A stretch of 64,000 nt of DNA from Candidatus Moraniibacteriota bacterium. Lineage in GTDB: Bacteria; Patescibacteriota; Minisyncoccia; Moranbacterales; GWC2-37-73. Shown here one piece after another: positions 11,576 through 61,848 of the stretch. A program made the translations under genes and the position numbers. Every line of letters starts with the position of its first letter. The first letter of the stretch is position 1. Below the pieces are notes generated by a model that searched no databases, had not been told where the DNA came from, and saw only the letters and a program-made list of their open reading frames with translations. The stretch spans positions 4,552-68,551 of the forward strand of contig DAIUDF010000002.1 of the NCBI GenBank assembly GCA_036845785.1, written 5' to 3'.

Positions 11576-11639
11576 TTTATATTATTATGTGACAATTCTA
11601 ACATAATTTAAGCCTTTTTTACAAGCTATAAACATCTTT

Positions 11640-11671
11640 TACAAAAAGATTTTTTCTGCTATTATTTACTT
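11640..11671 (+). promoter_or_regulatory. putative sigma70 promoter for GT-C paralog B
   Basis: TTTACA - 16/17 bp - TATTAT immediately upstream of the ATG at 11672. Confidence 0.35.
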
Positions 11672-13405
11672 ATGATAAAGAGCACAAAAAAATGGACAGT
11701 GGTTGCCTTATTTATTGTTATTGTTGGGGCAATATTTGTTAGAACCTACAATTTCAATGACTGGCTCTATTTTAAGATGGATCAATCAAGAGATGCATTT
11801 TTAATCGACAACATAGCTGAGAATGGACCGGGGTATCTGCCTCTTTTAGGAGCTAGAGCCGGAGCAACTGAAGTAGAAAAAGGCTTTTTGCGACTGGGAC
11901 CTATTTTCTATTATTTTCAATATATTTCAACCCAGATCTTTCATTCAACTGAACCGGCTGTCATGGCTTATCCCGATTTATTTTTTTCGGTAGCGGCAAT
12001 TATTCTCTTATATTTTTTTGCCAGGCTTTATTTTTCTCGCAAATATTCACTGATGATTATGGCGATGTATGCTTTTTCGTTCATTATCATCCAATATTCG
12101 CGTTTTGCTTGGAATCCAAATTCGTTGCAGTTTTTTCTTCTGCTTAGCTTCTATGGGATGCTGAGATTTTTCAGGGAACAAAATGAGATAAAAAAATATC
12201 TTTGGCTCGGGCTTTGGATCTTGGGTATAGTGGTCGGTTCACAATTGCATTTTTTCGGTTTTTTTGGGCTAGTTGGAATTTCCGGACTCTTTACATTGTT
12301 TAAATTGGAAGTATGGAAAAAGGAAAAAATTTGTTCATATTTCAGAAAAAAAACAATTCTCGAATTTTCCAAATATGCAGTGTTAGCACTTCTTATTTTT
12401 GTAGTTCTTTACTCGCCAGTTATAATTAGTGATATAAAAGAAGGGGGACAAAATTCAAGAAATTTTGTTTCAGCTTTAAGTTCAAAAGCAGAAAAGAAGC
12501 CGTTTACTAAAAAAATTACAAAAAACATTTCTGAAAATCTCAATTATTATTGCCTTATCACAACCTCGCAATGCTATGGAGAAGAAAATAATAAGGAAAA
12601 ATTTGCCATGATAATCACAGCCATAATTATTTTAGGCGGAATTATGGTGATTGTGCGTGCTTTCAGGAAGGAGGGTGATCCGGATAGGAAAAATTTTTTG
12701 GCGCTTATGCTCATTTGGATGGTGGTCTATTTTATTCTGATGATTCCGGTTTCATTCCAACTCCGTCCAAGGTTTTTTATTGTGGTCTTTGCAGTCCCAT
12801 TTATTTTACTCGGAATTATTTATGAATATTTAGCGGAAAAAATTAATCACAAAAGAGCAATTCAAATCAGTGTTTTAATCTCTATTTTGATAATCGCATG
12901 GAATTCTTATGGAACATATGCTTGGTTTTCTGAGCAAGCAAATTCACAAAAAGAAACAACGGAAATAAAAAGATCTCTCATTTTGAAATCCAAAGATGGG
13001 GTTTTGCTTTGGCATCTCCAAAATGCTGCTGATTGGATGTATTCTCAGCATGAACAAGGAAAAACTCTTTACTATTACGTTAAACCCGAACATGTACGTC
13101 CGATTGACTACTTGCTTTTCGAAAAACGTGACCCGAATTTGGTTTATGAAACAATGCAAATAAATGAAGATCCAAATGCGCAGTATTTTGCTATCACTCC
13201 TGCAAAAAACGGAATTGACCCAGTAGTTAAAAAATTTAACGAAAATGACATTTATCTTGTTCAGCAGAAACAGTTCGGACAAATTTTAGTTTCAGAGATA
13301 AATGTTAGCAATAGAAAAGTGTCTGCAACTTTTAAGTTTAACCGTCCAAAAACCAAGACAGATAGACTTTTTTGGAAAGATGTCTTTGGTAATAATAAAG
13401 AATAA
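11672..13405 (+). CDS. GT-C fold ArnT/PMT-like glycosyltransferase, paralog B
   Basis: 'VRTYNFNDWLYFKMDQSRDAFLI' and 'RFAWNPN' conserved with A, C and D; divergent C-terminal soluble domain. Confidence 0.55.
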   Translation: MIKSTKKWTVVALFIVIVGAIFVRTYNFNDWLYFKMDQSRDAFLIDNIAENGPGYLPLLGARAGATEVEKGFLRLGPIFYYFQYISTQIFHSTEPAVMAYPDLFFSVAAIILLYFFARLYFSRKYSLMIMAMYAFSFIIIQYSRFAWNPNSLQFFLLLSFYGMLRFFREQNEIKKYLWLGLWILGIVVGSQLHFFGFFGLVGISGLFTLFKLEVWKKEKICSYFRKKTILEFSKYAVLALLIFVVLYSPVIISDIKEGGQNSRNFVSALSSKAEKKPFTKKITKNISENLNYYCLITTSQCYGEENNKEKFAMIITAIIILGGIMVIVRAFRKEGDPDRKNFLALMLIWMVVYFILMIPVSFQLRPRFFIVVFAVPFILLGIIYEYLAEKINHKRAIQISVLISILIIAWNSYGTYAWFSEQANSQKETTEIKRSLILKSKDGVLLWHLQNAADWMYSQHEQGKTLYYYVKPEHVRPIDYLLFEKRDPNLVYETMQINEDPNAQYFAITPAKNGIDPVVKKFNENDIYLVQQKQFGQILVSEINVSNRKVSATFKFNRPKTKTDRLFWKDVFGNNKE

Positions 13406-13448
13406 GATAGTAAACTTAAAAATATAACAGGAGAGGAATAGGAAAAAT

Positions 13449-15158
13449 ATGCATAAAAAAATCATAAATTATTTCAAATTAGTTCCTAGACATGTCTGGG
13501 TTTTGGTTTTTATTATTGCCGTAGGAATATTTTTCCGTACCTACAATTTTCATGATTGGCTCCATTTTAAAGGCGACTCTTTTCGCGATGCAATTCTTGT
13601 TTCTCATTCCATCATAGACGGGCCAGCATTTCTTCCGCTTTTGGGTCCTCGTGCAGGAGGGACACAACTTCATCTTGGACCCATATTTTATTATTTCCAA
13701 TATATCTCAGGAACAATTTTTCAAAGCACCAGCCCTGTTGTGCTGGCTTTTCCGGATCTGTTCCTGTCTATTATGGCAATTCCTCTTTTCTTTTTAATGT
13801 TGCGAAGATATTTTTCTAAAAAAATTTCTTTGATTCTTACCGCCATGCTGGCAACTTGTTATATGGCTGTAGAATATGGAAGATTTGCCTGGAATCCAAA
13901 TTCAACCCCATTTTTTACGATATTATTTTTATATTCCTTGCTTAAGGCTTATGATTCTGAAAACAATCGTCAATATGCCTGGTTGGCAATTTCAGGGGGT
14001 GCACTAGCTATAGCCTCACAGCTTCATTTTAGCGCTTTCCTGGGTCTTCCAATTATATTTATCTTATTTGTTATTCTTAATTGGAAAAAATCTAAAAAAA
14101 TTATATTTTCCTGGAGATCTTTGCTGATATTTTTTGGAACCATCTTTGTCTTTTATATCCCGGTGATTATTTTTGAAGTTGTAACTCACGGAAAAAATAC
14201 ATTCTTGTTTTTCGATGCAGTCAATGGAAAGAGTTCAAACAGGGGATTGTGGAAAAATATAGTTCAAGAAACAAAAATGTTTTCAAAATATTTCTTATGG
14301 ATCGGGGCCGGAGTTTTTGAGGGCAAATGGTGGCAGGAGCTAGCAAGTAAATTTCTTGTTTTTGCCGGAATAGCCGCAAATCTTTTTCTTTTTAAGAAAG
14401 AAACAGATGAAAAGAAAAAAAGATTTCTTTTGCTGACTTTTATTTTTATGCTTGTCTATTTAGTCTTATATTTTCTTTTGGCTTTTGAAATAGAAAAATC
14501 TCGCTTCTTTCTTCCTTTAATAATCATGCCTTTTATTTTGGTAGGCTATCTTGCTTTACTTGCGGGCAAAACAAAATTTAAAAAAACATCCAATTTTTTT
14601 ATCGGAATTTTTATTATAGCGCTTATTTTTGGAAACGCTAGGTCAATAATGACTTGGTTTTCAGAAATGAAAGAATCAGAAACCGAGAGAGAGACTTCTT
14701 ATAAAGTATTGACAGAAAAGGATAAAAGTTTCTGGTGGACATGGGGGCGTTTCGAAAAAGCTGCAGACTATATGGATGAAAGTTGCCAAAAAAATGCCGT
14801 TTTCTTTTTGATGTCTAAAAAAACAAAAGACTATGACCATTCAATCGAGTATGCTTTGATTCAGAGAAACAGGAATCTCGCCATAGAATTGAAAGACAAA
14901 TTTAAAGAAAAATATGAAAATTATGATAGATGCTATTTTTATATTTCACTTGCAAAGGAAATATTACCTGATTTTGTCCAGCAGAAAAAGCATGACGAGC
15001 CTTTTTTTCTAGGAGACATGAAAATCACTCAGTGGTATCCAGAAAATGCGCTGCTGTCAGTTTCTCCGGCAAACAAAGATCCAGAAGAGCGAGATTCACT
15101 TGAAAAAATTATAGCATCCAAATATCCACGCTTGCAGTGGGGAGATTTATTTCAATAA
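13449..15158 (+). CDS. GT-C fold ArnT/PMT-like glycosyltransferase, paralog C
   Basis: 'FRTYNFHDWLHFKGDSFRDAILV', 'RFAWNPN'; divergent C-terminus. Confidence 0.55.
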   Translation: MHKKIINYFKLVPRHVWVLVFIIAVGIFFRTYNFHDWLHFKGDSFRDAILVSHSIIDGPAFLPLLGPRAGGTQLHLGPIFYYFQYISGTIFQSTSPVVLAFPDLFLSIMAIPLFFLMLRRYFSKKISLILTAMLATCYMAVEYGRFAWNPNSTPFFTILFLYSLLKAYDSENNRQYAWLAISGGALAIASQLHFSAFLGLPIIFILFVILNWKKSKKIIFSWRSLLIFFGTIFVFYIPVIIFEVVTHGKNTFLFFDAVNGKSSNRGLWKNIVQETKMFSKYFLWIGAGVFEGKWWQELASKFLVFAGIAANLFLFKKETDEKKKRFLLLTFIFMLVYLVLYFLLAFEIEKSRFFLPLIIMPFILVGYLALLAGKTKFKKTSNFFIGIFIIALIFGNARSIMTWFSEMKESETERETSYKVLTEKDKSFWWTWGRFEKAADYMDESCQKNAVFFLMSKKTKDYDHSIEYALIQRNRNLAIELKDKFKEKYENYDRCYFYISLAKEILPDFVQQKKHDEPFFLGDMKITQWYPENALLSVSPANKDPEERDSLEKIIASKYPRLQWGDLFQ

Positions 15159-15175
15159 TTATTAATACATAAAGC

Positions 15176-16825
15176 ATGTCTCTGAAAGATTTTCTAAAAA
15201 AAAGAGAACCTCAGATATTTGCAATAGCATTTGCCTTAATTTTGTTGCTGGGTATTTTTCTGAGGACCTACAACCATCATGATTGGCTCAGGTTTAATGC
15301 CGATCAGTCTAGGGATGCTCTGCTTGTGAATAATTTTCTTGAAGGAAAAATAGATTTGCCACTTTTAGGGCCAAAGGCCGGAGGAACATTTTTTAGTCTT
15401 GGGCCGATGTTCTATTATCTCCAAATTGCGTCAGCAAAAATATTCGGGACAACTCCTGACAAAATAGCGTATCCTGATCTTTTGTTTTCAATATTGGCAA
15501 TTCCTTTGCTGTATTTTTTAATGAGGATATATTTCAATAGATACGTTTCTTTTTCTTTAACAGGGCTTTTTAGTGTTTCAATGTTTGTGGTGCAATATTC
15601 TCGTTTTGCTTGGAATCCGAATGCCAGCCCATTTTTTGTTTTTCTTTTTCTATATTCACTCTTGATGCTGGCAAGCCTGGAAACAAAAAAGAAAATGTTT
15701 TGGGCATCTGTCGCAGGGATAGCTTTTGGAGCAGGGGTCCAACTCCATACGTTGCTGCTTATAATTATGCCGGCTATCGCAGTTTTATTTCTTGGATATT
15801 TTTGGAAAAAAAAGCTGATTTCAATAAAAAATTGCATTGCAATTTTTCTTATTGCTCTTGCGCTTAATACTCCGCAAATAATAAGTGAAATAAAAACAGA
15901 AGGACAGAATGTGCGCACATTTTTTGCAGGAACAATCAAGAAAACAGACGGGAAAGAGACTGTTTTAGAAAACCTTGCAAGTGATGCGGCATGCCAGATA
16001 CAGGCAAATTCATACATTATTTCTTCCTACGGCAACAGTGATAATTGCGGTGTGGATGTTATTTCAAGTTCTCTTAAAAAAGTAAAACATTTCGATAAAA
16101 AATTTTTGATAATCCTGGAACTTTTGCTTGGCACAATTTTTTCAATTGGAGGATTTTTGCTGTGGGGAAGAGCAGTTAAAAAAGAAAAAAATCAAGATAA
16201 AAAAATATTCCTTGTTTTACTGGGGACATATTTGTTAGCGGTTTTTGTTTTGCTTATACCGCTTGCTAATGAAATTTCACTCAGATTTTATCTTGCTTTA
16301 GAATTTGTTCCATTTATGCTTCTTGGCTTTTGGATTGTGGCAATCATCGAATGGACAAAAGAAAAATACAGAAAACATGTTGTTGTATTTCTAATCGTGG
16401 TGCTTCTCTTTTTGGCAGGCTGTAATATTTTTTCTGTGCAGGAATCTTTTGCAGCAGTTTCTGTTGAAGAAAAAATGGAAGATGCTGAATCTTTTATAAC
16501 ACTAGGAGAAACAGAGTTTATTTCCCGATATATTATTTCTCATTCAGGAGCGCAAAAAACAGTCTATGTTGAAGGGAAACAAATATATCTTTTTAAGTAT
16601 CTAAAGTCTATTGAATATTTCACAAGCCAAAGCGGAGTCAGCGTTAGACAAAAGTTAAAAGAAGAAGCTATTCCAGAAGGCGCAACTATTTTTATAATCG
16701 ATGACGCAAAATGGAAAGGAAATCTTAAAAAATCAATGCAAGAAACATACGAATCTTATGATGTAGAAGCATATGGACGCTTTTCGATAGCGATGATGCA
16801 GAAGAAAGAAATTATCAAAAATTAA
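15176..16825 (+). CDS. GT-C fold ArnT/PMT-like glycosyltransferase, paralog D
   Basis: 'LRTYNHHDWLRFNADQSRDALLV', 'RFAWNPN'. Shares an extra Cys-containing segment with paralog A. Confidence 0.55.
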   Translation: MSLKDFLKKREPQIFAIAFALILLLGIFLRTYNHHDWLRFNADQSRDALLVNNFLEGKIDLPLLGPKAGGTFFSLGPMFYYLQIASAKIFGTTPDKIAYPDLLFSILAIPLLYFLMRIYFNRYVSFSLTGLFSVSMFVVQYSRFAWNPNASPFFVFLFLYSLLMLASLETKKKMFWASVAGIAFGAGVQLHTLLLIIMPAIAVLFLGYFWKKKLISIKNCIAIFLIALALNTPQIISEIKTEGQNVRTFFAGTIKKTDGKETVLENLASDAACQIQANSYIISSYGNSDNCGVDVISSSLKKVKHFDKKFLIILELLLGTIFSIGGFLLWGRAVKKEKNQDKKIFLVLLGTYLLAVFVLLIPLANEISLRFYLALEFVPFMLLGFWIVAIIEWTKEKYRKHVVVFLIVVLLFLAGCNIFSVQESFAAVSVEEKMEDAESFITLGETEFISRYIISHSGAQKTVYVEGKQIYLFKYLKSIEYFTSQSGVSVRQKLKEEAIPEGATIFIIDDAKWKGNLKKSMQETYESYDVEAYGRFSIAMMQKKEIIKN

Positions 16826-16839
16826 TATTTTTTACATAA

Positions 16840-16866
16840 TAAAAACGCTCCGTAGGAGCGTTTTAA
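16840..16866. terminator. bidirectional terminator
   Basis: Perfect 8-bp stem AACGCTCC/GGAGCGTT with loop gta, flanked by A-run and T-run, between convergent genes. Confidence 0.55.
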
Positions 16867-16884: not shown

Positions 16885-18414
16885 TTATGCTGCTGGTTCG
16901 TTGCCGGAAAGTTCTTCCTGAATTTCAACTTTCCTTTTCTTTTTAGCAATTATATGTTTGATATATTCCAGATCGTTCTTAGTGATTTCGCCCAAAACAT
17001 ATAAGATTAGCAGATATCCGGCAAATAGTATTACTGACCAAGCTATGAAAATAAATTCTCCTTTGGAAAAAAAGAGTGAAGCAGTAAACATCAGTCCGCC
17101 GGAAAAAATTATTTTCAGCAGGCTTTTAAGTTCGAGAATAACTCCGAAATCGCGTCTGACGTAGTGCAGGATTGCCAGCATAACCACAAAAGAAGTGATT
17201 GTGGTGGCGATTGCCGAACCGGCAATGCCATATTTATTGATCAGAATATAATTCAGAATTGTGTTGACAATGACTCCGAAAATGGAAATAAACATTGGAA
17301 TCTTGGTTTTGCCGGCGCCGTTCAAAACAAAACTCATGACATAAAAAATTGTCAGAAAACCGACGCCGTAGGCTAGAATTGACATCGGGAAAGCGGCGGC
17401 TAAATATTTGTGTCCGTAAAAAATTTGGATAATCGGTTCGGCAAATTGCGACATCAAAATTACCGAGGGCACCAGCAGGATCGTCATCAGCCGCATTGAT
17501 TGGCTGATAATTTTGTTGGTTTCGTCATGATTTTTTTCCGCCGTAGTTTTGGAAACGACAGGCAGCAGCATGATGGTCAGGGCGTAGAAAATATAGTAGG
17601 GAATGCGGCCGACAGTCAAAGCGCCATTATAGACTCCGGTTAAATAATCGTCATGCAAAATACCTTTGACCAAATATAAATCGATGCTGATTAAAAGTTC
17701 ATAAGCCAGAAAAAACAGGATAATCTGCCAGGCGTAGTTTATGAGTTTTTTGGTCTCAAATTGGCTCTCAAGGGCCAAATTTTGCGTTTTGGCGGCTTTT
17801 TTAAGCTCCTTGGTGTACTTGAGCTGGTCAAGCGCAAAAGCGATTAAAAAGACCAGAAATGCGGCCAAGGCATAACCCACGATCGAGCCTGGAACACGGA
17901 AAGCATAGGCCAGGCCGACAATGGCCGCTACCTTGAAAACAGAGCGCAGTGTCTTTAAAACTGACTGGACATTGAATTTGTGGAGGCCGGTGTAGAAAGA
18001 AAAGTAGAATGAGGCCATGGCAAAAGCCGGAATGATCAAAGTTGAAATTCTGAAAAGGGGAGTGAGACTTGGGTCGCCCAAAACATGGGAGATGAGAGGG
18101 GCTGAAAGAAAAAATATAATTGTAATTGCACCGATTAAAATCGTTTGCAAAACAATTGTTTTCTTTTTGATGGCCAGCACCAAGCGCGGGTTGGCTTCAA
18201 AAATCTCGCTGATATATTTGGCCATGGCGGTTGGGATGCCGTTGCCGATGAGAATGATGACCATGGTAGTCAAGGTCACAACTAGGCCATATCTGCCGTA
18301 ATCGGCAGGACCCAAAATCCTGCCCACCAAAGAGTGGATTACATAGCCGGAAAGATTGAAAATTATTTCCGAAACGACGAGCCAAAAAGTTGATCTAGCT
18401 AGGTTGGTTGACAT
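16885..18414 (-). CDS. polysaccharide biosynthesis / oligosaccharide flippase (Wzx, MOP superfamily)
   Basis: 509 aa with ~14 TM helices and the typical Polysacc_synt N-terminus 'ARSTFWLVVSEIIFNLSGYVIHSLVGRILGPADYG'. Confidence 0.6.
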   Translation of the reverse strand: MSTNLARSTFWLVVSEIIFNLSGYVIHSLVGRILGPADYGRYGLVVTLTTMVIILIGNGIPTAMAKYISEIFEANPRLVLAIKKKTIVLQTILIGAITIIFFLSAPLISHVLGDPSLTPLFRISTLIIPAFAMASFYFSFYTGLHKFNVQSVLKTLRSVFKVAAIVGLAYAFRVPGSIVGYALAAFLVFLIAFALDQLKYTKELKKAAKTQNLALESQFETKKLINYAWQIILFFLAYELLISIDLYLVKGILHDDYLTGVYNGALTVGRIPYYIFYALTIMLLPVVSKTTAEKNHDETNKIISQSMRLMTILLVPSVILMSQFAEPIIQIFYGHKYLAAAFPMSILAYGVGFLTIFYVMSFVLNGAGKTKIPMFISIFGVIVNTILNYILINKYGIAGSAIATTITSFVVMLAILHYVRRDFGVILELKSLLKIIFSGGLMFTASLFFSKGEFIFIAWSVILFAGYLLILYVLGEITKNDLEYIKHIIAKKKRKVEIQEELSGNEPAA

Positions 18415-18843: not shown

Positions 18844-19176
18844 ATGTCGTTGTTTAAAAACATGAATCTGGAAAAGAGGAAGCTTCTTTTGGAAATTGCC
18901 AAAGAAGCAGAGGAAGAAACCCGCGAGCTTTTAGCGCATTTTAATAGCAAGGAACTCAGAGAAAGATGCCCTGACAGTACTGAAAGATTGAAAGCAAGCT
19001 GTCCCGAAAAGTTTATGGGAGGACCCATTTTTACAATGCGTTCCGCTCTCAAACTCAGAAAGGATGTCCTCACGGTTATTTTAAGAGGCTTTCTTAATGG
19101 AAAACACGACGATGAGGCTAAATTGCTGGATGAAAAATTATGCGCAGGAGTGAGAGGGCTTCTTGCCAGTCATTGA
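18844..19176 (+). CDS. hypothetical protein
   Basis: AAGGAGG SD 8 nt upstream; 110 aa; no recognisable domain. Confidence 0.4.
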   Translation: MSLFKNMNLEKRKLLLEIAKEAEEETRELLAHFNSKELRERCPDSTERLKASCPEKFMGGPIFTMRSALKLRKDVLTVILRGFLNGKHDDEAKLLDEKLCAGVRGLLASH

Positions 19177-19184
19177 TTTTTTAG

Positions 19185-19235
19185 CAAAATTCGCAAAAAC
19201 GCTTTCGGGTTTATAAAACCGGAAGCGCTTTTTTC
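19185..19235. terminator. bidirectional hairpin terminator overlapping the 3' end of 19211..19813
   Basis: GCGCTTTCGGGTTT ... AACCGGAAGCGC imperfect stem with T-runs on both sides. Confidence 0.35.
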
Positions 19236-19813
19236 ATTTCCTCAAAAATTTCTTCTTTATTTCTATTACCGTCAATGATTTTTAAATTCCAAACTGATGC
19301 CGCAGTGTCGTAGAGTTCTTTTTTCTTTTGCAAATAGGCAAGACCCTGATCAGGCTTTCTTTCTCTTCGCATAATAACTTCCGGATCAGCCTGAAGATAG
19401 GCAGCAACATCCGGCAAGGGTATTTTTTTTATCATGTCGCTATTGATAGATGACTTTCGGAAATTATCGGTTTTGCCTTGCAAATAAAGTAAATTTATCA
19501 GGTTATCATAAAAATATCTGTCGCTGATGAGATATTCAAAGCCATCTCTCTCTAATTTTTTTAAAAGCTTCTTGAATCTTAACAGATCGATGGGCAAAAA
19601 AATTCCTCGCAAAAATATCTGAAAAGAGTTTGCTTTCGTGACGCTCTTAGCCATTCCGCTTTTATTTTTTTTAAAAATCCGGTTAGCTAAACCGAAATGA
19701 ACAGCATGAAAATAAAAAACTTTCTTGCTCTGCGATTCAAGGTAATCTATAAGAAGTTTTATCTGGGTTGATTTTCCGGATCCATCCAGGCCGGAAATGG
19801 TAATGATTTTCAT
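19211..19813 (-). CDS. thymidylate-kinase-like P-loop nucleotide kinase
   Basis: P-loop 'ISGLDGSGKSTQ' and a 'DRY' motif (LISDRYFYD) as in dTMP kinases, but no REPGG motif, so possibly a divergent Tmk or another (d)NMP/substrate kinase. Confidence 0.45.
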   Translation of the reverse strand: MKIITISGLDGSGKSTQIKLLIDYLESQSKKVFYFHAVHFGLANRIFKKNKSGMAKSVTKANSFQIFLRGIFLPIDLLRFKKLLKKLERDGFEYLISDRYFYDNLINLLYLQGKTDNFRKSSINSDMIKKIPLPDVAAYLQADPEVIMRRERKPDQGLAYLQKKKELYDTAASVWNLKIIDGNRNKEEIFEEMKKALPVL

Positions 19814-19818
19814 ATAAA

Positions 19819-20910
19819 TTATTTTTTTACATTGATAGTCGTATACTTTCCATTCGTCAGATAATTTAAATTGACATCCACTCTGCCTTCTTTGACATTA
19901 ATAATGCCAAAAGCTCCTGGGTATTTTGGATTTTTATAAACTCCGGGGAGAGAAAAATATTGAACCCCGTCATCCTTTTCATAGTAAAGATTCTCGATGT
20001 GTCCGCTAAAAACGGCTAAAACATCATGTTTAGCAAAGATTTTTCTAAGTTCATCGGCATTGTCAAGAAAATTGAATTTTGATTCAAAACCAACATCTAG
20101 AAGGGGGGTATGGTGAATAAAAATGATAGTTTTTTTCTTTGTGTTTTTTAATTCTTTTTCTAGCCATCTGAGTTCTTCACTTGAAACATGACCGCGAGTA
20201 TAACCGTTTCCGTTAGTCACATTTTTATCTTTAGATGTGAAGTTGCTGTCTAAAATTATTATTTTATAATTCCTTAATTCGAATGATTTTCTGAGATAAT
20301 TTATGCCTAAAGCATTTTGCCATTGTTGTTTTGTAACCGAACGCAAATCATGGTTGCCTAAAACCCAATATTTTTGTATTTTTGATAAATTAAAAATATT
20401 TTTAACCAATTGCAGTTGTTTCAGGCCCGTATTGGCCGGTATTTTTGTTCCTTCAATAACATCGCCGTTTATTAAGATGAAATCAGGGACAATTTCATTA
20501 TTCATTTTTTTAACAAAATGATAAATTCTATTTGTAAACGGCCCAGCAAGCGTATTGGTTGAAGAGCCGTTAAATACATGCAGATCGGTAATAAAACCAA
20601 TCGCTAATTCGTCAGAACTTCTTGCAATGGGAACATAGTCGGGCAACTGGGAAGACAAATCCGTCTCATTTTCATCTGTCTTTGCGTCGGTTTTTGTTTC
20701 CTCAGTTTCTTCTTGCGCGGCAAGTTCTTCCATATCATTTTCAAGAATCTTAGACGCTTTCGCTGTCATATTTTCTGCTACTGGATTATAAGTAGCGCTT
20801 TTTTGCAAAGCATCAATATAACTTCTCATGTTTAAAAAAACAAAAAAAGCCATAAACGCAATTGCTATAAAAAAAATAGACAAATAAATAAGATTATTTT
20901 TTTTCTGCAT
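19819..20910 (-). CDS. membrane-anchored calcineurin-like metallophosphoesterase
   Basis: N-terminal TM anchor and acidic linker, then 'DLHVFNGS', 'GDVIEG', 'GNHD', 'GHIEN' metallophosphatase motifs. 5-nt gaps to both neighbours indicate an operon. Confidence 0.6.
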   Translation of the reverse strand: MQKKNNLIYLSIFFIAIAFMAFFVFLNMRSYIDALQKSATYNPVAENMTAKASKILENDMEELAAQEETEETKTDAKTDENETDLSSQLPDYVPIARSSDELAIGFITDLHVFNGSSTNTLAGPFTNRIYHFVKKMNNEIVPDFILINGDVIEGTKIPANTGLKQLQLVKNIFNLSKIQKYWVLGNHDLRSVTKQQWQNALGINYLRKSFELRNYKIIILDSNFTSKDKNVTNGNGYTRGHVSSEELRWLEKELKNTKKKTIIFIHHTPLLDVGFESKFNFLDNADELRKIFAKHDVLAVFSGHIENLYYEKDDGVQYFSLPGVYKNPKYPGAFGIINVKEGRVDVNLNYLTNGKYTTINVKK

Positions 20911-20915
20911 ATTTA

Positions 20916-23546
20916 TTAGTACATCAAAACCGCGACCGGTTCCATTTTGGCCACAACATTGATTATATTGTTTTCTTCCAAACCGCTTATAACTTTTTCT
21001 ACATCTTTATAATACGAACTATCCTGCAAAATCACGCCTTTGGAGGCAGCGTTATATAATTTCACCTTGCTTTGCTGCATTTTTTGGAAGAGTTCTTTTT
21101 TGTTCTTGGCGGCATTTTCTTGGTGGTGTTTGCGGCGTCCGGTGCCATGCGGAGCTGAAAAAAATGTTGATTCATTGTTGTCCGTGCCAACACCGATGTA
21201 GGCAGCAGTGCTCATGGAAGAGGGAATAAAGACCGGTTCGCCGGTTTCTTTGAAAAGCGGATGATCTTGCATGCGGGCGGGTCCGAAGGCGCGCACACTG
21301 CCGTTCCGGTGCACCCACACATTCTGGCCGAAATGATTTTCTTTTTCGATAGAAATATGGGTTGTGTCATACAGAAGATCAAGTTCGACTTGCTTACCGA
21401 AAACTTTTTCCAAAGCATTGTCTAAATGATGGGTTATAACAATTCTGTTGGCAAACCCAAAATTGGCAGCAGCACGATGTGCGTTCCAAAACATCCGTCC
21501 TTCCATAGAATCATCTTCGTAACCGAAAAATTCCTCCTTGTTTTTATAAGCTTCAATTTTTTTGGCCAAGCGCTGATAAACTTTTTTCATCTGGCTGCCG
21601 AAAAAAGTGGTGCCGATTTTCAAAACAATCTGCTGGCTCAGGTGTTCTTTCTTTTTGGGGGTGTACATATAGGAAGCATATTGGCCCATTAGGCCGCTGC
21701 CGGTGTGGATCAAAAAAACATACTGGCCGGTTTTGAGGCCGAATTTTTCAGCAATTTCCGGATTTTTAATTTCCGATATTTTCATGAGATCCAGAAAATG
21801 ATTGCCGGCTGCGCCTAAAATTCCCAGGCGGTAGCTGCCAATTTTTATGAAAAGTTCCGGCACAGAATCCAGAATGTCGCGGCAGCCAGCTGCTTCATCC
21901 CGGAAAAAATTTCCATTGGCAAAAGCGTTTGTAATTTCGTTTTTTGTGCGGATCTTGAAATGATCTAGCAAAGGAGCAGCGCCCGCAAAACATATATTCA
22001 AGGCTGTGCGGTAGGGCACCGGAGTGCCTATGTATTTTTTAGTCGGAACGACTTTAACTAATTCCTGAAAAAGCCGGTCAATACTTTCTGAAGTAACTTC
22101 ATTGTCAAACAAATTAGTTTTGACAAGCCTCATGCCGCAGTTGGGAGCAGTGTCGTTGATTTGCGGCAAGAAAAATTTTTCAGTTGCGACCACGCTGCCG
22201 GTGGGAACTTTGCGTCCTTTTTTGGAATGGACATCGCTCATTTCGGCGACGTGATGGAAAAGGCGCTGGTCTCCCGCCAAGGATTCAATTTCAGAAAGCG
22301 TTTTATCACTGGGCAACAAATCATCAGAAACATGCAAAACGGCCGGAATTTTCATTTTTTCGGTTCGGAGTTCTTTTTTATTGGCGCTCAGGGAATTGAG
22401 TTTATAGGCGGATTCCATAATATTATCTTTCAAAAATTTGTTATAAATATTTTTGTATTGTTCGGCCACATTTTTAATGTCAAAATTGTTCTGCACGAAC
22501 TCGCGGGCGTTTTTGCCAAGGGCAGTTCTTTTTTCCGGATTACTATAGAGATCTAAAATAGCTTCATTTAATTTTTGCACGCTGCCTTTTTCGATTCTAA
22601 CAGAGTTTTCTTCTTTTGCGAACTCCCGAAGAAGCGGCAAATCGGAAATGATGACCGGTTTTTCACAAGCCATAGCTTCAATGACAGCCAAGGGCACATC
22701 AAATTTTCCCTGCATGTTTTTGACCGGAAAAATGCTGATGTCAGCCATATTGTAAAGTTCAAAGACATCATAGAGCCCGTCATCATGAAAGGCTACACGA
22801 TTTAACAGATTATTTTGTTTGAAAATTTCAAAAACTTCTTTTTTCTTGGCTGCATCTTTCTTGTTTTTTATTCTGACAGCCAGAGAAAGCTTGGCTTCCG
22901 GAATCAACTTGGCAATTTCCAGAAAACTTTGCACCACAGTATCCATGGCATCGTTCCGGATATACTCGCCGGTGAAATTGATGATAAAATCACGGGGAGC
23001 AAAAGAATATTTTTGAAGATACTCCGGATTTTTGCCGGTGTTTTTATAAATATCAAGGTCGATGCCGGGATAGATCCTTTCCACATTGCGAAAACCCATT
23101 GCCAGCAGCTTTTTTTTGGTGTAATCGGAATAGGTTATAAGCATGTCTCCAAAAAGCATTTTCTTGATTTCGGCTTCGGAAAAAAGGTCTTCTCGCAAAG
23201 TGGCGATTGTTTGGATTGTATGAAAACGGTCTTTTTTATTTTTAATGAAATTTTTAACCAGGAATGAATTTTGCTTGGTCGGCGTGAAGAGAAAATGCAA
23301 AATGTTGAATTCTTTTTTGAAAGTTCTAAGTTTCAATATTAGCCGGACTTTTTGCCACCAGGAAAAATCGCTTTGAGTATAAATCGGTTTTTGAAGGACA
23401 GAGTCTGGCATATAGGAAAGTTCGCCTTTGGTTAAGAGGCCGATTTTAAAATCAGAAATATTTTTAGCCAGAAAAAAGGCAAAGTTTTTCGAGCCTTCAT
23501 CCCAAGGGGGAGTGATAGGGCGAGTAACAAGTAGGATTTTCTTCAT
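20916..23546 (-). CDS. fusion protein: N-terminal GT4 glycosyltransferase domain + C-terminal RtcB-like RNA-ligase domain
   Basis: Residues ~1-400 are GT4 ('FDVPLAVIEAMACEKPVIISD'). Residues ~400-886 carry RtcB hallmarks in order: 'MSDVHSKKG..PTGSV', 'NCGMRL', 'HTGSGLMGQ', 'FGFANR', 'HRNGS', 'IPSSMSTAAY', 'HGTGRR'. Single uninterrupted 886-aa frame. The track start at 23576 is TTG; the ATG at 23546 is likely. Confidence 0.55.
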   Translation of the reverse strand: MKKILLVTRPITPPWDEGSKNFAFFLAKNISDFKIGLLTKGELSYMPDSVLQKPIYTQSDFSWWQKVRLILKLRTFKKEFNILHFLFTPTKQNSFLVKNFIKNKKDRFHTIQTIATLREDLFSEAEIKKMLFGDMLITYSDYTKKKLLAMGFRNVERIYPGIDLDIYKNTGKNPEYLQKYSFAPRDFIINFTGEYIRNDAMDTVVQSFLEIAKLIPEAKLSLAVRIKNKKDAAKKKEVFEIFKQNNLLNRVAFHDDGLYDVFELYNMADISIFPVKNMQGKFDVPLAVIEAMACEKPVIISDLPLLREFAKEENSVRIEKGSVQKLNEAILDLYSNPEKRTALGKNAREFVQNNFDIKNVAEQYKNIYNKFLKDNIMESAYKLNSLSANKKELRTEKMKIPAVLHVSDDLLPSDKTLSEIESLAGDQRLFHHVAEMSDVHSKKGRKVPTGSVVATEKFFLPQINDTAPNCGMRLVKTNLFDNEVTSESIDRLFQELVKVVPTKKYIGTPVPYRTALNICFAGAAPLLDHFKIRTKNEITNAFANGNFFRDEAAGCRDILDSVPELFIKIGSYRLGILGAAGNHFLDLMKISEIKNPEIAEKFGLKTGQYVFLIHTGSGLMGQYASYMYTPKKKEHLSQQIVLKIGTTFFGSQMKKVYQRLAKKIEAYKNKEEFFGYEDDSMEGRMFWNAHRAAANFGFANRIVITHHLDNALEKVFGKQVELDLLYDTTHISIEKENHFGQNVWVHRNGSVRAFGPARMQDHPLFKETGEPVFIPSSMSTAAYIGVGTDNNESTFFSAPHGTGRRKHHQENAAKNKKELFQKMQQSKVKLYNAASKGVILQDSSYYKDVEKVISGLEENNIINVVAKMEPVAVLMY

Positions 23547-23682
23547 AATATTCAGAAAATAATTTTTAATTTCCAATTTTTAATTTTTAATCAATTTCCA
23601 ATGTTTTAGTTTAAAAATCAAATTGCTGGCGTGCTTTTTTTGGCTTATATTAGGTATTATTTATGATTTTATGTTTAAAGCA

Positions 23683-23711
23683 TTGACAAATTTTTTTAGA
23701 TATGCTACAAT
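23683..23711 (+). promoter_or_regulatory. perfect-consensus sigma70 promoter (TTGACA-17 bp-TACAAT) with no downstream ORF
   Basis: TTGACA 23683-23688, 17-bp spacer, TACAAT 23706-23711. Confidence 0.6.
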
Positions 23712-23717
23712 ATACAC

Positions 23718-23890
23718 TTGAAAGTGATGGTGTGTGTTCTTTAAAAGAGTTTAAGGATTTTTTCTCACACCACAAAAATATAAAGGTGGTCTACCGAAGA
23801 ATGCGGGAGTAGCGTGTTGGATACAGCATAACACGTGAAGCATGTCAAAGGAGATTAGAAAAATCCCACATCATCATTTTCTTTTTTATT
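23718..23890 (+). ncRNA. candidate small structured RNA (~170 nt; 6S-like or unknown)
   Basis: No ORF on either strand. The 5' segment GAAAGUGAUGGUGUG pairs (two G-U wobbles) with the 3' segment CACAUCAUCAUUUUC, which is immediately followed by a U-run. Internal hairpins are also present. Confidence 0.35.
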
Positions 23891-23891
23891 T

Positions 23892-23966
23892 AGGCGCTTA
23901 TACTCGAATCTCTTGTGTCCCAGAGTGGACATATATAAAGAGTAATAGAGGAAGCGCCTTTTTTCT
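23892..23966 (+). terminator. second hairpin + T-run (AGGCGCTT ... AAGCGCCT, TTTTTTCTTTT)
   Basis: Perfect 8-bp closing stem enclosing a GUGUCC/GGACAU inner stem; T-run on the + strand only. Confidence 0.45.
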
Positions 23967-24004
23967 TTTATGAAAAAACTTTTTTTATATTAATTCTATA
24001 AAAT

Positions 24005-24367
24005 TTACAAATTCTTATATATCTCTTTTTTATTATCGCCGGCAGTTACTGTTATGGTAATTTTTCTATCGGAGAAATCCACAGTATCTTTTGGAACAGG
24101 AACGGTTTTTGTCTCACCCGATGGAACAGACAAATTGCTTTCTATGACTACTTTTTTATCAATCAATATTTCATAACGGAAATCGGAATTTTTACTGTGA
24201 TTTTCAACGGCAAAGTCCAGTGAATCGCTTTTGGGATCAGTAAAATACAGCATCCAGACATTGCTGTTGTCGAGGTTGGTATTTCTGGATTCAACAATAG
24301 TCAAAAAAACAAAACTTAGAAATAAAAAGAATATTGTTGAGAAAATTATTAATTTATCGGTTTTCAT
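24005..24367 (-). CDS. small exported or membrane-anchored hypothetical protein
   Basis: N-terminal hydrophobic segment; 120 aa. Confidence 0.4.
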   Translation of the reverse strand: MKTDKLIIFSTIFFLFLSFVFLTIVESRNTNLDNSNVWMLYFTDPKSDSLDFAVENHSKNSDFRYEILIDKKVVIESNLSVPSGETKTVPVPKDTVDFSDRKITITVTAGDNKKEIYKNL

Positions 24368-24477: not shown

Positions 24478-26400
24478 TTAGCTGGACTTATAAAATACTC
24501 CAACTTCGTCTCCTGCATAAATCTGCCAGAAATTGCCAAGTCTTTGGAACTGTGAGCTGTCGATTTTTGGATTGAGCATAATAAAATTTGTCTTTGTTCC
24601 TGTAAAACATTTTTGAGCTTCCGGGCTGCTGGGGAGTGAAATCATCTTATTTGTGCATTGCTCGCGCGGCTTGGTTTCATCCTCGTAGCGTTTGAAATAA
24701 CCCCGAGAGAGCGGATAGTTATAGCCGCGCATAAAGAACAATTTTATCCAGGAATCTCCGGAAAGATAGTTGTGATCCTTGAGAACAATATCGCTCTCGG
24801 ACAAATGCTGAGCCAAATATTTTGAAGCCGCATAGGTTTGAATGGATTTTCCGGCACTGCTGTCAAAGTCGAGCGACTGCGAATTGTCACGCAATCCGTC
24901 CGCCGCAATGAAAATCATGAATGTAAAAAATAAAAGCAAGACGAAGAACGGTTTTATATAATTTTTATTTCTTTCTTCAGCTTTCAATAGAGCAAAGAGG
25001 CGGACAAGCGCATAGGCTGCCACAATAGCAACGGGGAAAACCACATAGCTGGCAATTCTGGTTGAGGGAATGTCAATAAAAAGCAAATCTGGTTTTAGTG
25101 ACATTAAAACCAGGATACCCAGCCATCCCAACAAAAACGCCTGATTGTATTTTCCGATTTTGCGCGCAAAGAAAAGCAAAATAAATCCTAAAAAGGCAAA
25201 AGCAAAGCGGGCTTCTCCGGCAGTGGTTTTGAGCTGCGTCAATGTAATGCCGGCGCGGGAAGCTTTGCTGGGCGTGCCGACGGCCGTATCAATAGCCGAT
25301 GAATTAAGATAAGTCGGAACGCATATAAAAAATATGAAAGCCGCGCCCAGAATTATAATTGAAATTACTGAAGGAGAAAGAAACATTTTCAGCCACTCCT
25401 TCGCTTCGAATTTTATGGTTCGGAAATTTAAAACAATAAAAAATATGAGAGCAAAGATAGCTGCGAAAATAAACACAAAAGTGCTGAGATGATGCGTGTA
25501 GACGAGTCCTAGGGTTGTGAAAATAGCCAAAGAAAGCAAATACGCTTTCTTTTTTGAGAAGGCTTTGATGTAAAAAAGCATGGCTAATGGAATAAAAAGA
25601 TTGCCAATAGCGTTGCCGATAACGCCGCCGCTCACGAATTTTGCCTGCGGGGAAGCCAAAGCATAGAGCGGTCCAATAAGGAAAAGAGCCATGATAGCAA
25701 TCATGTCTTGGCGCTTTGCTCCCCCAAAAATTTCACGAGTTAAAATAAAAATTGCTAAAATCGACATTATTTGAATAAGAAAAAGGACTAATGATGGAAA
25801 TGAAGAAATAAAATCCTGACCAGAAATAAGAGCAATAGCAGCAAAGATTAAGTGTTCTCCAATTATGAAATCGGCAATTGGCGCAGGACTTTCAATTGTA
25901 TAGTCACTGCCGATGTCAGCTTTTTCGTAGACAGGCAAATGGCCGGTGGTTGTGATTACTTTTGACCAATACATATGATGTCCAAGGTCAGTCGAAGTTG
26001 GCGGAATTGTATCCTGAAAGTAGATAGTTTTAATAAAAATTGTCAGAAAAAGCAGAATTAATACCAAAACGACTGATTTTTTGGAAAATTCTTCCTGTTG
26101 GGGCTCTGCCTGAATTTTTTCTTTGGATTTAAAGTAAAAATAGATTGCAGAACAAATTAAGGAAAAAATGATTATGGCTGCCAAAATTGACAAAGAAGTT
26201 ATTTTAATTCCGGTTTTACCCAGAATTATTATCAAAAAATCAGAAACAACTATGCTCAATCCGAGGGATATTATAAAAATCTCCAAAGCAGAAAAATGAT
26301 TTTTCCTTCTCGTCGCCAAAAGCAGAAAATAACCGGGAACAAAAAGAACCAGTGCAATGGCGATGTAAAATAATAGTTGTGATGTTATGAATTGAAACAT
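24478..26400 (-). CDS. large polytopic membrane protein, putative GT-C-like glycosyltransferase
   Basis: 640 aa with >12 TM helices, extracytoplasmic loops and a C-terminal soluble domain. In an operon with the GtrB-like GT2 and a GT4. Confidence 0.35.
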   Translation of the reverse strand: MFQFITSQLLFYIAIALVLFVPGYFLLLATRRKNHFSALEIFIISLGLSIVVSDFLIIILGKTGIKITSLSILAAIIIFSLICSAIYFYFKSKEKIQAEPQQEEFSKKSVVLVLILLFLTIFIKTIYFQDTIPPTSTDLGHHMYWSKVITTTGHLPVYEKADIGSDYTIESPAPIADFIIGEHLIFAAIALISGQDFISSFPSLVLFLIQIMSILAIFILTREIFGGAKRQDMIAIMALFLIGPLYALASPQAKFVSGGVIGNAIGNLFIPLAMLFYIKAFSKKKAYLLSLAIFTTLGLVYTHHLSTFVFIFAAIFALIFFIVLNFRTIKFEAKEWLKMFLSPSVISIIILGAAFIFFICVPTYLNSSAIDTAVGTPSKASRAGITLTQLKTTAGEARFAFAFLGFILLFFARKIGKYNQAFLLGWLGILVLMSLKPDLLFIDIPSTRIASYVVFPVAIVAAYALVRLFALLKAEERNKNYIKPFFVLLLFFTFMIFIAADGLRDNSQSLDFDSSAGKSIQTYAASKYLAQHLSESDIVLKDHNYLSGDSWIKLFFMRGYNYPLSRGYFKRYEDETKPREQCTNKMISLPSSPEAQKCFTGTKTNFIMLNPKIDSSQFQRLGNFWQIYAGDEVGVFYKSS

Positions 26401-26475: not shown

Positions 26476-27600
26476 TTATTTCGAATTCGATATTTGGCCT
26501 TTATTTGACATTGGGAATTTGTCATTTGTCATTACAGCTTTTATTTCTTCCAAATATCTTTGCGAAATATGTTCCCAACTGTAATTGTCAATTATGAATT
26601 GGCGTGTTTTTTCTCCAAAAATTTCCCGTGGACTGCCTACTGCAAAAAGTTCGTTTATTTTTGAAACATATGCATTAGCATTACCGGATTCAACCAAGAA
26701 ACCATTTTGCCCGTCCTTGATTGCGTCTTTTAGCCCTTCCAGAGATGAAGCCAAGACAGGCAAACGGCAAGCACCGGCCTCAATGACAGAAATTCCAAAG
26801 CCCTCCATATCTCCGGGAATTTTGATATTCGGCTGGACAAAAAGATCAGCCGTATTAAGTAGAGCATTTCTGACTGAATCAGTGATATAGCCAAGCACGT
26901 GCACCCGGCTGTATAAATTATTTTTTTTGATCATATCAAAAATATTCTGTTTGTCCGGACCATCTCCGGCGATTATATAGATAAAATCGCTGTCCAATTT
27001 TGGCATGACATTATCAATAAACCAGGCCACACCTTTTCTTTTGGCCAAGCGTCCGGAAGTGAGCAGAATTTTTTTGCCAGCCACTGTTTGTTTGATGATT
27101 TTTTCCAGATTTTCACGGCAAGAATCAACCAGATGTTTTTCAGTATCAACGCCATTGGGAATAAAAACAATCTTATTTTCCGAAATTCCTTTTTCTTTGG
27201 CAGTTTTTATGGTCTCATTGCCAACAGCAATAAATTTGTCAATTTTTTTCATAAAAATTCCTACCCATATTTTTTGATAGATAGGATTTTTCCAAGTCAG
27301 ATCCAAACCGTGAGCAATTGCTACAACTGGTTTTTTGCTGCCAAAAAGTTTTAGCCTCCAGGCGACATTAGCCAAGATGCAACTGCCCAAAACAACCACA
27401 TCATATTTTCGAGACGATAAAACAGCGCGGATAGTGGTGTACGCCAAAAAAAATGGAATCAGCCATCTTTTTTTGTTAGCGATCAATTTCACTTCCGTTT
27501 GTTTAGAAAGCCACGTTGAAAGCTCAAAATTGTGCGTTTCAACCCCGCCCACAATTGGTGGAAATGTGTGGGAAATAAACAAAATTCTTGGTTTGTCCAT
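26476..27600 (-). CDS. glycosyltransferase family 4
   Basis: 'ISVIEAGACRLPVLASSLEGLKDAIKDGQNGFLV' and the N-terminal 'ILFISHTFPPIVGGVE'. Confidence 0.7.
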   Translation of the reverse strand: MDKPRILFISHTFPPIVGGVETHNFELSTWLSKQTEVKLIANKKRWLIPFFLAYTTIRAVLSSRKYDVVVLGSCILANVAWRLKLFGSKKPVVAIAHGLDLTWKNPIYQKIWVGIFMKKIDKFIAVGNETIKTAKEKGISENKIVFIPNGVDTEKHLVDSCRENLEKIIKQTVAGKKILLTSGRLAKRKGVAWFIDNVMPKLDSDFIYIIAGDGPDKQNIFDMIKKNNLYSRVHVLGYITDSVRNALLNTADLFVQPNIKIPGDMEGFGISVIEAGACRLPVLASSLEGLKDAIKDGQNGFLVESGNANAYVSKINELFAVGSPREIFGEKTRQFIIDNYSWEHISQRYLEEIKAVMTNDKFPMSNKGQISNSK

Positions 27601-27679
27601 GCCTAAATTATAACTTATTATTAGATTTATTTCAAGAAAAAAGCCGCCAGAAAATTGGCGGCTTAAAACGTGTATAAAA

Positions 27680-41915: not shown

Positions 41916-41935
41916 TTTGCTAGAATTTATATTTT

Positions 41936-61825: not shown

Positions 61826-61848
61826 AATTGTTTTAATTAATTATTTAT

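Follow-up and report, generated by a model that had tools for sequence, protein, structure and literature searches.

Stop-codon loss joins a GT4 glycosyltransferase to an RtcB-family protein in a Moranbacteria genome, with a possible envelope-glycan role for the RtcB clade

To our knowledge, RtcB is known solely as an enzyme that joins or caps the ends of nucleic acids. We examined an RtcB-family protein that is encoded in one reading frame with a GT4-type glycosyltransferase, among envelope-glycan genes, in a 64,000-nucleotide (nt) stretch of DNA from a Candidatus Moraniibacteriota bacterium (GenBank assembly GCA_036845785.1, contig DAIUDF010000002.1, positions 4,552 to 68,551), which we call the window. 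The closest described systems are other noncanonical uses of RtcB. As cited in PMC10630183, the Escherichia coli enzyme can cap DNA as 3'pp5'G, RtcB2-PrfH repairs rRNA, and Myxococcus xanthus RtcB3 caps 5'-phosphates; in the light of these cases, RtcB-family enzymes are able to transfer a nucleoside monophosphate (NMP) onto phosphomonoester termini of other kinds and need not proceed beyond the capped pyrophosphate intermediate. The known substrates of the noncanonical paralogues are all nucleic acids, and none of these paralogues is known to be tied to glycosyltransferase, kinase, or flippase genes.

A further point of comparison comes from lasso-peptide biosynthesis, in which the kinase PsmK and the nucleotidyltransferase-type protein PsmN put a hexose on phosphoserine (PMC9266682). 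The logic that may be shared with our locus is that one enzyme, a P-loop kinase, produces a phosphomonoester on which a second, of the nucleotidyl-transfer type, builds a phosphodiester-linked sugar. This is an analogy only, since the folds, the kinase family, and the substrate (a peptide serine in the case of PsmK/PsmN) all differ.

We found that the single-frame GT4-RtcB fusion is genuine at the sequence level. We are almost certain that it is a recent read-through of two intact neighboring genes, confined to one species and brought about by the loss of a stop codon, and it is not an evolved or established architecture. In the literature that we searched, there was no relevant paper linking RtcB to a glycosyltransferase, a flippase, Tmk, or polysaccharide, or placing it in Patescibacteria, and the partnership of this RtcB branch with envelope-glycan genes is apparently undescribed.

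The fused gene and its origin

The open reading frame (ORF) runs on the minus strand from a TTG at 23576 to 20916 and encodes 886 amino acids (aa) in a single open frame. The start supported by homologues is an ATG at 23546 ("MKKILLVTRP"), which matches all GT4 orthologues as well as NCBI HPN54452.1 and gives a fusion gene at 20916..23546 with a product of 876 aa. The GT4 half, which we call GT4n, is of the GT-B, retaining type and occupies 22419..23546 (aa 1-376 from the ATG), while the RtcB half occupies 20916..22418 (500 aa plus the stop) and retains its native rtcB ATG at 22416-22418. Between the two lies the junction (22419..22433), where a TTG leucine codon at 22431-22433 stands at the ancestral GT4 stop and is followed by Lys-Asp-Asn-Ile, the former intergenic spacer. 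The resulting five-residue linker, L-K-D-N-I, connects a complete GT-B glycosyltransferase to a full RtcB domain, and the peptide across the junction of the predicted fused product is NKFLKDNIMESAYK. An earlier note on this DNA had read the 886-aa frame as a GT4/RtcB fusion lying inside a glycan locus; the frame proved to be open, both domains were matched by Pfam, and envelope-glycan genes fill a region of about 37 kb around the fusion.

In the nearest relatives, whose RtcB proteins are 88-92% identical at the amino acid level (DNA, 79-86%), the gene order is the same and GT4 and rtcB are separate genes. There the junction reads "...AAA CTT TAA AAATAT ATG CCA...", that is, a GT4 ending in "...KL*", 6 in-frame spacer nt, and the rtcB ATG; the pattern across relatives is ...IY(E/A)KL* plus 6 nt plus ATG, with a spacer of about 130 nt in the relative L007. 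The window reads "...AAA TTT TTG AAA GAT AAT ATT ATG GAA...", translated as "...KF-L-K-D-N-I-MESAYK...". The stop codon of GT4 is TAA, TAG, or TGA in relatives and has become TTG in the window, and the junction differs from that of the nearest relatives by several substitutions and by 12 extra nt (6 in-frame in the spacer and 6 at the RtcB N terminus).

In the ancestor, a GT4 gene was followed, at a distance of 6 nt, by an rtcB-family gene of the same orientation and reading frame. With the GT4 stop changed to TTG, ribosomes would continue through L-K-D-N-I into RtcB and produce one polypeptide of 876 aa. A Shine-Dalgarno-like motif precedes only 4 of the 42 gene starts in the window, where leaders are A/T-rich, which implies that initiation in this organism is independent of such motifs, and the leader before the internal rtcB ATG is an ordinary A/T-rich one of this kind. 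Free RtcB may therefore still arise by internal initiation, but free GT4 can no longer be produced. The ratio of nonsynonymous to synonymous substitution rates (dN/dS), calculated against unfused relatives, was 0.08-0.12 for the GT4 half and 0.05-0.07 for the RtcB half (dS, 0.8-1.8), values that indicate strong purifying selection on both.

It is also conceivable that the organism has two unfused genes and that the stop was lost only through a base miscalled during sequencing or assembly. The fusion is confined to one genotype, as such an error would be, and the three assemblies that contain the fused form may share source samples or stem from overlapping read sets. However, the fused protein is identical in all three: the NCBI metagenome-assembled genome (an NCBI-TPA assembly), ENA ERZ27257431 (L005, a MEGAHIT contig with 100% nt identity), and JGI 3300025871 (L008, 99.98% nt identity, its one difference falling beyond the ORF, where the contig ends). 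The several substitutions and the extra nucleotides at the junction amount to more than one miscall, and no break in composition was seen. Given the same fused sequence in three assemblies and a junction that differs at several positions, we rejected an assembly chimera or sequencing error and consider an artefact exceedingly unlikely. An alternative genetic code was likewise rejected, as table 11 already gives an open frame and GT4 terminates at TAA, TAG, or TGA in relatives.

We found the same fusion nowhere else. Homologue lists were made from the best 120 matches per half in a word-indexed search. The 119 nearest homologues of the RtcB half all came from Patescibacteria (Moranbacteria/Parcubacteria) and were stand-alone proteins with a length of about 498 aa; one entry had 886 aa, and this was the query itself. 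The 120 nearest homologues of the GT4 half, at about 370 aa, were likewise all stand-alone. This second search missed the fused protein (P0001) although it is in the database, so absence from that list is not proof. In an exhaustive phmmer (HMMER) scan of 1.84 billion representatives, no single protein had matches to the two halves, which agrees with the earlier note's remark that it knew of no covalent link between RtcB and a sugar transferase. We also followed its suggestion to look for the fusion in related genomes, using 80 loci from GTDB genomes (RtcB 51-92% identical) and 80 metagenome loci (38-88%). In-frame read-through was found in 0/80 and 0/80 of these, respectively, while the positive controls L005 and L008 scored positive; the genes are separate even at 92% RtcB identity.

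Long RtcB matches were considered as further glycosyltransferase-RtcB fusions and rejected, since they either contain inteins (P0233, P0262, and P0272) or carry an unrelated N-terminal P-loop domain. RtcB proteins thus tolerate additions, but none of the other multidomain forms has a glycosyltransferase, and GT4-RtcB occurs only in this genotype. The P-loop domain, of 330-440 aa, belongs to the divergent RtcBs P0251 and P0256. At L177:5758-8485, a P-loop gene precedes RtcB; its match to the HPr-kinase C-terminal domain is weak (E=0.003), and its precomputed annotation is ScmC-like. P0251, P0256, and L177 represent another kinase-RtcB pairing.

Fold and active-site residues of the two halves

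The RtcB half is a full-length member of its family by profile and by predicted fold, as the searches and structural comparison proposed in the earlier note bear out. Pfam RtcB (PF01139) matches residues 437-884 with E=4.7e-72 (244 bits against a cutoff of 27), covering profile positions 9-424 of 426, whereas the NCBIfam RtcB equivalog models were matched only below their cutoffs (for example, 107 against 407). A phmmer search of the PDB aligned it to Pyrococcus horikoshii PH1602 (2.9e-42), and identity to canonical RtcB is about 27%. An AlphaFold2 model of the C-terminal 500 aa had a mean predicted local distance difference test score (pLDDT) of 80 and a predicted template modeling score (pTM) of 0.85. 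In Foldseek, this model matched the P. horikoshii structures 1uc2, 4dwq, and 4dwr with a template modeling (TM) score of 0.78-0.83 and E=1e-31; with the Thermus thermophilus and human enzymes included, the range was 0.72-0.83, and all 16 significant matches were RtcB proteins.

We next mapped active-site residues by means of the PDB alignment, with P. horikoshii (Pho) numbering and a clade set of 145 distinct sequences. In characterized enzymes, the metal ligands are accompanied by the nucleotidyl acceptor His404, by Phe204, which stacks on the base, and by Asn202, which contacts the 5'-OH (PMC9745838, PMC3973293, PMC8051266). Guanine is recognized by Glu206, through N1 and N2, and by Lys480, through O6 (PMC9745838). 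The 5'-OH polynucleotide strand is contacted by Arg238, Arg190, Gln194, and His242 (PMC8051266), and Arg238 (E. coli Arg189) binds the first two phosphates of this strand, such that the R189A change slows sealing 200-fold (PMC9745838, PMC3973293, PMC8051266).

The catalytic core is retained throughout the clade. The metal ligands Cys98, His203, His234, and His329, which are Cys480, His593, His624, and His740 of the 886-aa protein, are invariant (145/145), as are Asp89 and the nucleotidyl acceptor, a histidine in the HG.GR motif "PHGTGRR". Phe204 is kept in 144 of the 145 sequences and Asn202 in 140; His810 and Asp475 (886-aa numbering) are also among the residues kept in the window protein. 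The column of Asp95 contains alanine, with an invariant aspartate two residues upstream ("INDTAPNCG" against "GYDINCG"), and the same D(-5) pattern is present in many RtcBs whose sites are otherwise canonical.

The residues that recognize guanine and the 5'-OH strand have been replaced. The Glu206 position is never Glu in the clade (Asp in 140, Ser in 2, and Thr in 1 of the 145 sequences for the three commonest residues), and the Lys480 position is never Lys (Met in 139, Thr in 5, and Val in 1), the C terminus reading "...VLMY" against "...LKG". Arg238 has given way to Gly (141) or Ser (4), His242 to Gln (140) or Arg (5), Arg190 to a hydrophobic residue (Ile, Val, Phe, or Met), and Gln194 to an invariant Arg. 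In the window protein, the altered residues are Asp596 (Pho Glu206), Met885 (Pho Lys480), Gly628 (Pho Arg238), Ile579 (Pho Arg190), and Gln632 (Pho His242). By contrast, R190, Q194, and R238 are present in all eight of the canonical RtcBs that were aligned with the clade (PH1602 and seven from the database), and H242 is present in seven, the other having Trp. We also used isoelectric point as a proxy for lost RNA binding and saw no difference.

Compared with canonical RtcB (P. horikoshii PH1602, E. coli, and human RTCB), the window protein therefore shares the full-length domain, the fold (TM about 0.8), the metal ligands, His404, Phe204, and Asn202. It differs by the changes Glu206 to Asp, Lys480 to Met, Arg238 to Gly, Arg190 to Ile, and His242 to Gln, by the two-residue shift of Asp95, and by the position of its gene, which has no archease, RtcA, or RtcR nearby and lies inside an envelope-glycan locus, fused to GT4. 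Every RtcB motif string quoted in the earlier note is present in the translation, and its claim of an ordered RtcB signature holds for the metal ligands and the nucleotidyl-His, though not for the guanine contacts or the contacts to the 5'-OH strand. By alignment, the histidine-nucleotidylylation engine appears to be conserved, whereas the features that define GTP-specific polynucleotide sealing do not.

The GT4 half likewise has the makings of a complete enzyme. Pfam Glycos_transf_1 matches residues 185-359 (E=1.3e-16; 61 bits against a cutoff of 26.4), with Glyco_trans_1_4 and Glyco_trans_1_2 also matching, and the N-terminal 180 or so aa, although without a Pfam match, are covered by the GT-B model. 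The AlphaFold2 model of the N-terminal 376 aa (pLDDT, 90.8; pTM, 0.89) is a complete two-lobed GT-B fold, with TM scores of 0.72-0.81 to HepE, BshA, PimB', GlgM, and MshA over about 390 columns. Retaining GT4 enzymes usually carry an E-x7-E motif. The corresponding region of the GT4 half reads "GKFDVPLAVIEAMACEKPV", giving D283-x6-E290 with a first position that is not Glu, and both D283 and E290 (the second Glu) are invariant in 30 GT4n orthologues. GT4n thus shares the fold and the Glycos_transf_1 C-lobe of the named enzymes, but it is only 15-20% identical to them, has an N-lobe unseen by Pfam and D283-x6-E290 in place of E-x7-E, and forms a distinct family that tracks with RtcB and with the kinase described below.

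Gene partners of the RtcB clade

We asked which genes accompany rtcB in the 160 related loci. GT4n lies within 700 nt upstream of rtcB on the same strand in 67/72 genome loci and 55/58 metagenome loci, with gaps typically of -17 to +50 nt. A gene for a thymidylate-kinase-like P-loop kinase, which we call TmkL, follows rtcB at a distance of up to 700 nt in 56/74 and 48/62 loci, and in 50/62 and 34/45 there is a flippase gene no more than 3 kb downstream. A DUF6541 gene lies upstream in 61/67 and 42/45. In the window, TmkL is encoded at 19211..19813 (minus strand; Pfam Thymidylate_kin, 42 bits against a cutoff of 27). It has P-loop and DRY motifs, but its score against TIGR00041 is 39.5 where the cutoff is 83.25, and in the alignment to its best PDB match, Thermotoga maritima Tmk (E=1.5e-9), the "REPGGT" segment has no counterpart.

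More distantly related loci contain the same families in other neighborhoods or in a different order. L091, whose RtcB is 40% identical and whose GC content is 49%, has a tight GT4n-RtcB-TmkL trio amid sulfotransferase, LPG_synthase_TM, and epimerase genes. L173 has LPG_synthase_TM and RtcB on one strand and GT4n, a B12-radical-SAM gene, and TmkL on the other, and L174/L175 read GT4n-methyltransferase-radical-SAM-LPG_synthase_TM-RtcB-...-deacetylase-...-GT2. The GT4 proteins of distant loci match the GT4 half of the fusion over their full length with E=1e-42 to 1e-83 (1e-42 to 1e-45 for those of L173 and L174/175), whereas three other GT4 paralogues in the window match at 1e-6 or worse (1e-7 or worse in the case of L173 and L174/175). 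This recurrence of GT4n and TmkL with the RtcB branch in shuffled order spans lineages of 34-49% GC. At L092:800-2305, a full-length but degenerate RtcB homologue (P0135, 34% identical) sits directly upstream of a MOP flippase gene and beside PMT-type GT-C genes; it has lost catalytic motifs (SDVH to SSIR, GNHFLD to EEPVVY, and PHGTGR to NYEIGK), which suggests that it keeps a noncatalytic role.

A B12-binding radical-SAM gene recurs beside two RtcBs with a canonical guanine pocket, L173:1439-2980 and L174:2955-4451. Both loci also share LPG_synthase_TM immediately upstream of rtcB and an unannotated gene for 522-577 aa immediately downstream.

In Candidatus Omnitrophota, TmkL and GT4n are themselves joined. 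The TmkL::GT4n fusion (570-576 aa) is conserved there in six clusters at 45-49% identity, on contigs of up to 811 kb (loci L089:540-3286 and L090:3526-6272; proteins P0273 and P0395-P0400). Behind it come a PF14907 (NTP_transf_5) nucleotidyltransferase and then LPG_synthase_TM and PMT_2, and RtcB is absent from this arrangement. Two variants include the nucleotidyltransferase in the same polypeptide: P0396 unites all three parts (Tmk-like::GT4n::NTP_transf_5), and P0406 has two (NTP_transf_5::Tmk-like). The PF14907 nucleotidyltransferase, of a family to which PsmN may belong, stands in the Omnitrophota module where RtcB stands in Moranbacteria. The TmkL::GT4n and GT4n::RtcB fusions therefore provide two independent "Rosetta-stone" links, one between kinase and GT4n and the other between GT4n and RtcB.

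Taken together, these gene associations make it probable that GT4n, the RtcB clade, TmkL, and a flippase or LPG_synthase_TM-type protein form one functional module amid GT-C (PMT_2/DUF6541) enzymes. Membership of both genes in such a module would also explain why their fusion has been tolerated. Among deep RtcB relatives, the association with glycan genes is common but not universal.

In the window itself, positions from about 0.1 to 37 kb make up a single extended envelope-polymer region, with genes for several GT4 and GT2 enzymes, two UDP-glucose dehydrogenases, an LPG_synthase_TM protein, a Wzy_C protein, an LCP ligase, and six PMT_2-type GT-C enzymes, of which four are encoded in a cluster at 9743-16825. 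The PMT_2-type paralogues, at 5857-7491 and 9743-16825, include three in tandem on the plus strand (11672-16825) and are present in about two-thirds of Moranbacteria loci. On the minus strand, downstream of TmkL, lies the MOP-family flippase (Polysacc_synt/MurJ-like by Pfam; 16885..18414), with a terminator-like hairpin at 16842-16864. Upstream of the fusion, on the same strand, are conserved genes for a 120-aa membrane-anchored protein (24005-24367) and for the DUF6541/DUF1616 polytopic membrane protein (Pfam; 24478-26400), and then a second GT4 assigned by Pfam (GT4b; 26476-27600). A promoter-like site at 27607-27635 and, at 27641-27664, a strong terminator belonging to the preceding gene, both matches to consensus patterns only, make it probable that the fusion is transcribed as part of a unit beginning in the GT4b region.

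The fusion gene ends 5 nt before a gene for a metallophosphoesterase with an N-terminal transmembrane helix (19819..20910, minus strand; Pfam Metallophos, E=3e-18), a spacing that the earlier note gave correctly. Its use of this neighbor as a clue to function fared less well. A metallophosphoesterase gene directly follows rtcB in 2/74 of the genome loci and 0/62 of the metagenome loci, being limited to the nearest relatives (L001-L010 and L101), whereas elsewhere TmkL comes immediately after rtcB. The gene is thus a recent lineage-specific insertion between rtcB and TmkL, outside the conserved module. Such an insertion offers no basis for inferring function, and we rejected the enzyme as a functional partner within that module. 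In sum, the domains, frame, and context described in the note stand, while the fusion as an evolved architecture and the metallophosphoesterase as a clue do not. A metallophosphoesterase homologue is found 2-3.5 kb further downstream in a subclade of about 40% identity (L138, L147, L161, and L162), and the window has a second, shorter Metallophos gene at 5053-5841.

Neither archease, RtcA, RtcR, nor PrfH was found among the approximately 50 Pfam-scanned genes of the window or the called genes of related loci. PADLOC matched neither the fusion nor the phosphoesterase nor the 120-aa protein and gave only weak partial matches for TmkL (VakA, E=7e-7), and Rfam had no match in the window. Several further features were observed. 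At 41376-42637, a LigT/2H-family phosphoesterase gene ("2'-5' RNA ligase" family) is immediately followed by a gene for a glycosyltransferase of the WecG/TagA family and is the window's second "RNA-end" enzyme family adjoining a wall-polymer enzyme. Between TmkL and the flippase, on the opposite (plus) strand, a 110-aa ORF without a Pfam match (18844-19176) has counterparts of 97-110 aa in L003, L004, L006, and L007, and tblastn found it in 0/38 more distant Moranbacteria. The gap of about 430 nt upstream of the fusion (23577-24004) contains no ORF of at least 80 aa; a 23S_rRNA_IVP (four-helix-bundle) gene is at its position in L002:2388-2753 and L003:144-509.

Possible function of the clade and its alternatives

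How, then, might an RtcB protein serve an envelope-glycan module? We tentatively propose that this RtcB branch has left RNA repair and, together with a Tmk-like kinase, a GT4, and a flippase, forms a conserved envelope module, present in Patescibacteria and in other lineages, that activates a phosphomonoester made by the kinase. Because the metal ligands, the histidine, and the stacking Phe are conserved, the RtcB domain would still carry out Mn-dependent histidine nucleotidylylation. With a nucleoside triphosphate (NTP), possibly not GTP, the domain would convert a phosphomonoester other than RNA into NMP-P-X; a sugar, glycerol, or lipid phosphate, plausibly made by TmkL, would be the substrate. 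The activated group may then be joined to a hydroxyl, possibly giving a phosphodiester, and the product would feed or modify a glycoconjugate built by GT4n and exported by the flippase and GT-C enzymes. GalT makes UDP-sugars by way of a His-UMP intermediate; with this precedent and those of RtcB3 capping and PsmK/PsmN, the proposed chemistry is plausible.

A different explanation is that RtcB is the lineage's housekeeping RNA ligase, acting in tRNA or rRNA repair or in splicing, that it has resided in a slowly rearranging glycan region ever since the ancestor of Moranbacteria, and that the fusion has no functional meaning. We regard this as a real if doubtful possibility. It would account for the full RtcB fold and catalytic core, the strong purifying selection, and the limitation of the fusion to one species, and compact operons in Patescibacteria often mix functions. 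RtcB paralogues with varied residues still act on nucleic acids, according to PMC10630183. The region around the gene is also syntenic throughout Moranbacteria, over some 20 kb, and neighbor counts alone are therefore weak evidence, as adjacency could reflect inertia. Synteny does not cover the recurrence of the same GT4n and TmkL families with the RtcB branch in shuffled order across lineages of different GC content, nor the equivalent module with its TmkL::GT4n fusions and a different nucleotidyltransferase. The loss of Arg238, Arg190, His242, Glu206, and Lys480 in all 145 members, the retention of a catalytically degenerate homologue beside a flippase gene (P0135/L092), and the failure to find archease, RtcA, or RtcR nearby likewise speak against a housekeeping ligase. 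The earlier note had raised the recruitment of RtcB-type phosphoryl activation to an envelope polymer, which our analysis does not demonstrate, although the order-shuffled module and the residue losses lend it independent support. The note's other suggestion, an RNA-repair enzyme deliberately tethered so that the GT4 half would localize it, for example at membrane or envelope machinery, gains none. The covalent link and the conservation of both halves would fit a tether, as would the membrane-surface activity of GT4 enzymes such as PimB', which is among the best PDB and fold matches. However, the link exists in one species only, with separate proteins even among the closest relatives; the GT4 half has a full GT-B fold with invariant residues in the donor-site region and is thus enzyme-like rather than a scaffold; and the residues that contact the RNA strand are absent. 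We consider deliberate tethering highly unlikely.

Several observations count against an envelope-glycan role for the clade. The module argument depends on very few distant loci (L091, L092, L173, L174/175, and L089/90) in genomes where glycosyltransferase genes are abundant, and of the remaining deep relatives, L177 is in a nonglycan context and L176 is on a contig too short to inform on context. The glycan-linked relatives P0134 and P0141 have a canonical guanine pocket but lack Arg238 and Arg190, so the change in the pocket is not tied to glycan association, and the metal ligand Asp95 aligns only after a two-residue shift. Ordinary sugar-1-phosphate nucleotidyltransferases are encoded in the same genome at 60959-62646. 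The scan for RNA-repair partners covered the window and related loci, and a second RtcB, or a need for RNA splicing or repair, could exist elsewhere in Moranbacteria genomes. Since the role is inferred from genomics only, we hold an action of the clade on some phosphomonoester other than RNA, as a step in the synthesis of envelope glycans, to be the likeliest single reading though somewhat short of probable. As a joint account of origin, module, and mechanism, the reading favored here is the best explanation we have, and we consider it evenly balanced between right and wrong.

The fusion itself is a one-off local accident, yet it exposes a widely conserved partnership between this RtcB branch and envelope-glycan genes, and it is a natural two-enzyme construct. 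If RtcB is a housekeeping ligase in this lineage, the finding is a well-documented case in which two genes of a compact genome were fused through the loss of a stop codon. If the clade does act in envelope-glycan synthesis, it would be the first RtcB to act outside nucleic-acid metabolism, and the GT4::RtcB fusion and the TmkL::GT4 fusions of Omnitrophota would be Rosetta-stone links within a single pathway. That pathway would represent a new route to nucleoside diphosphate-activated or phosphodiester-linked envelope glycoconjugates in the poorly understood Patescibacteria.

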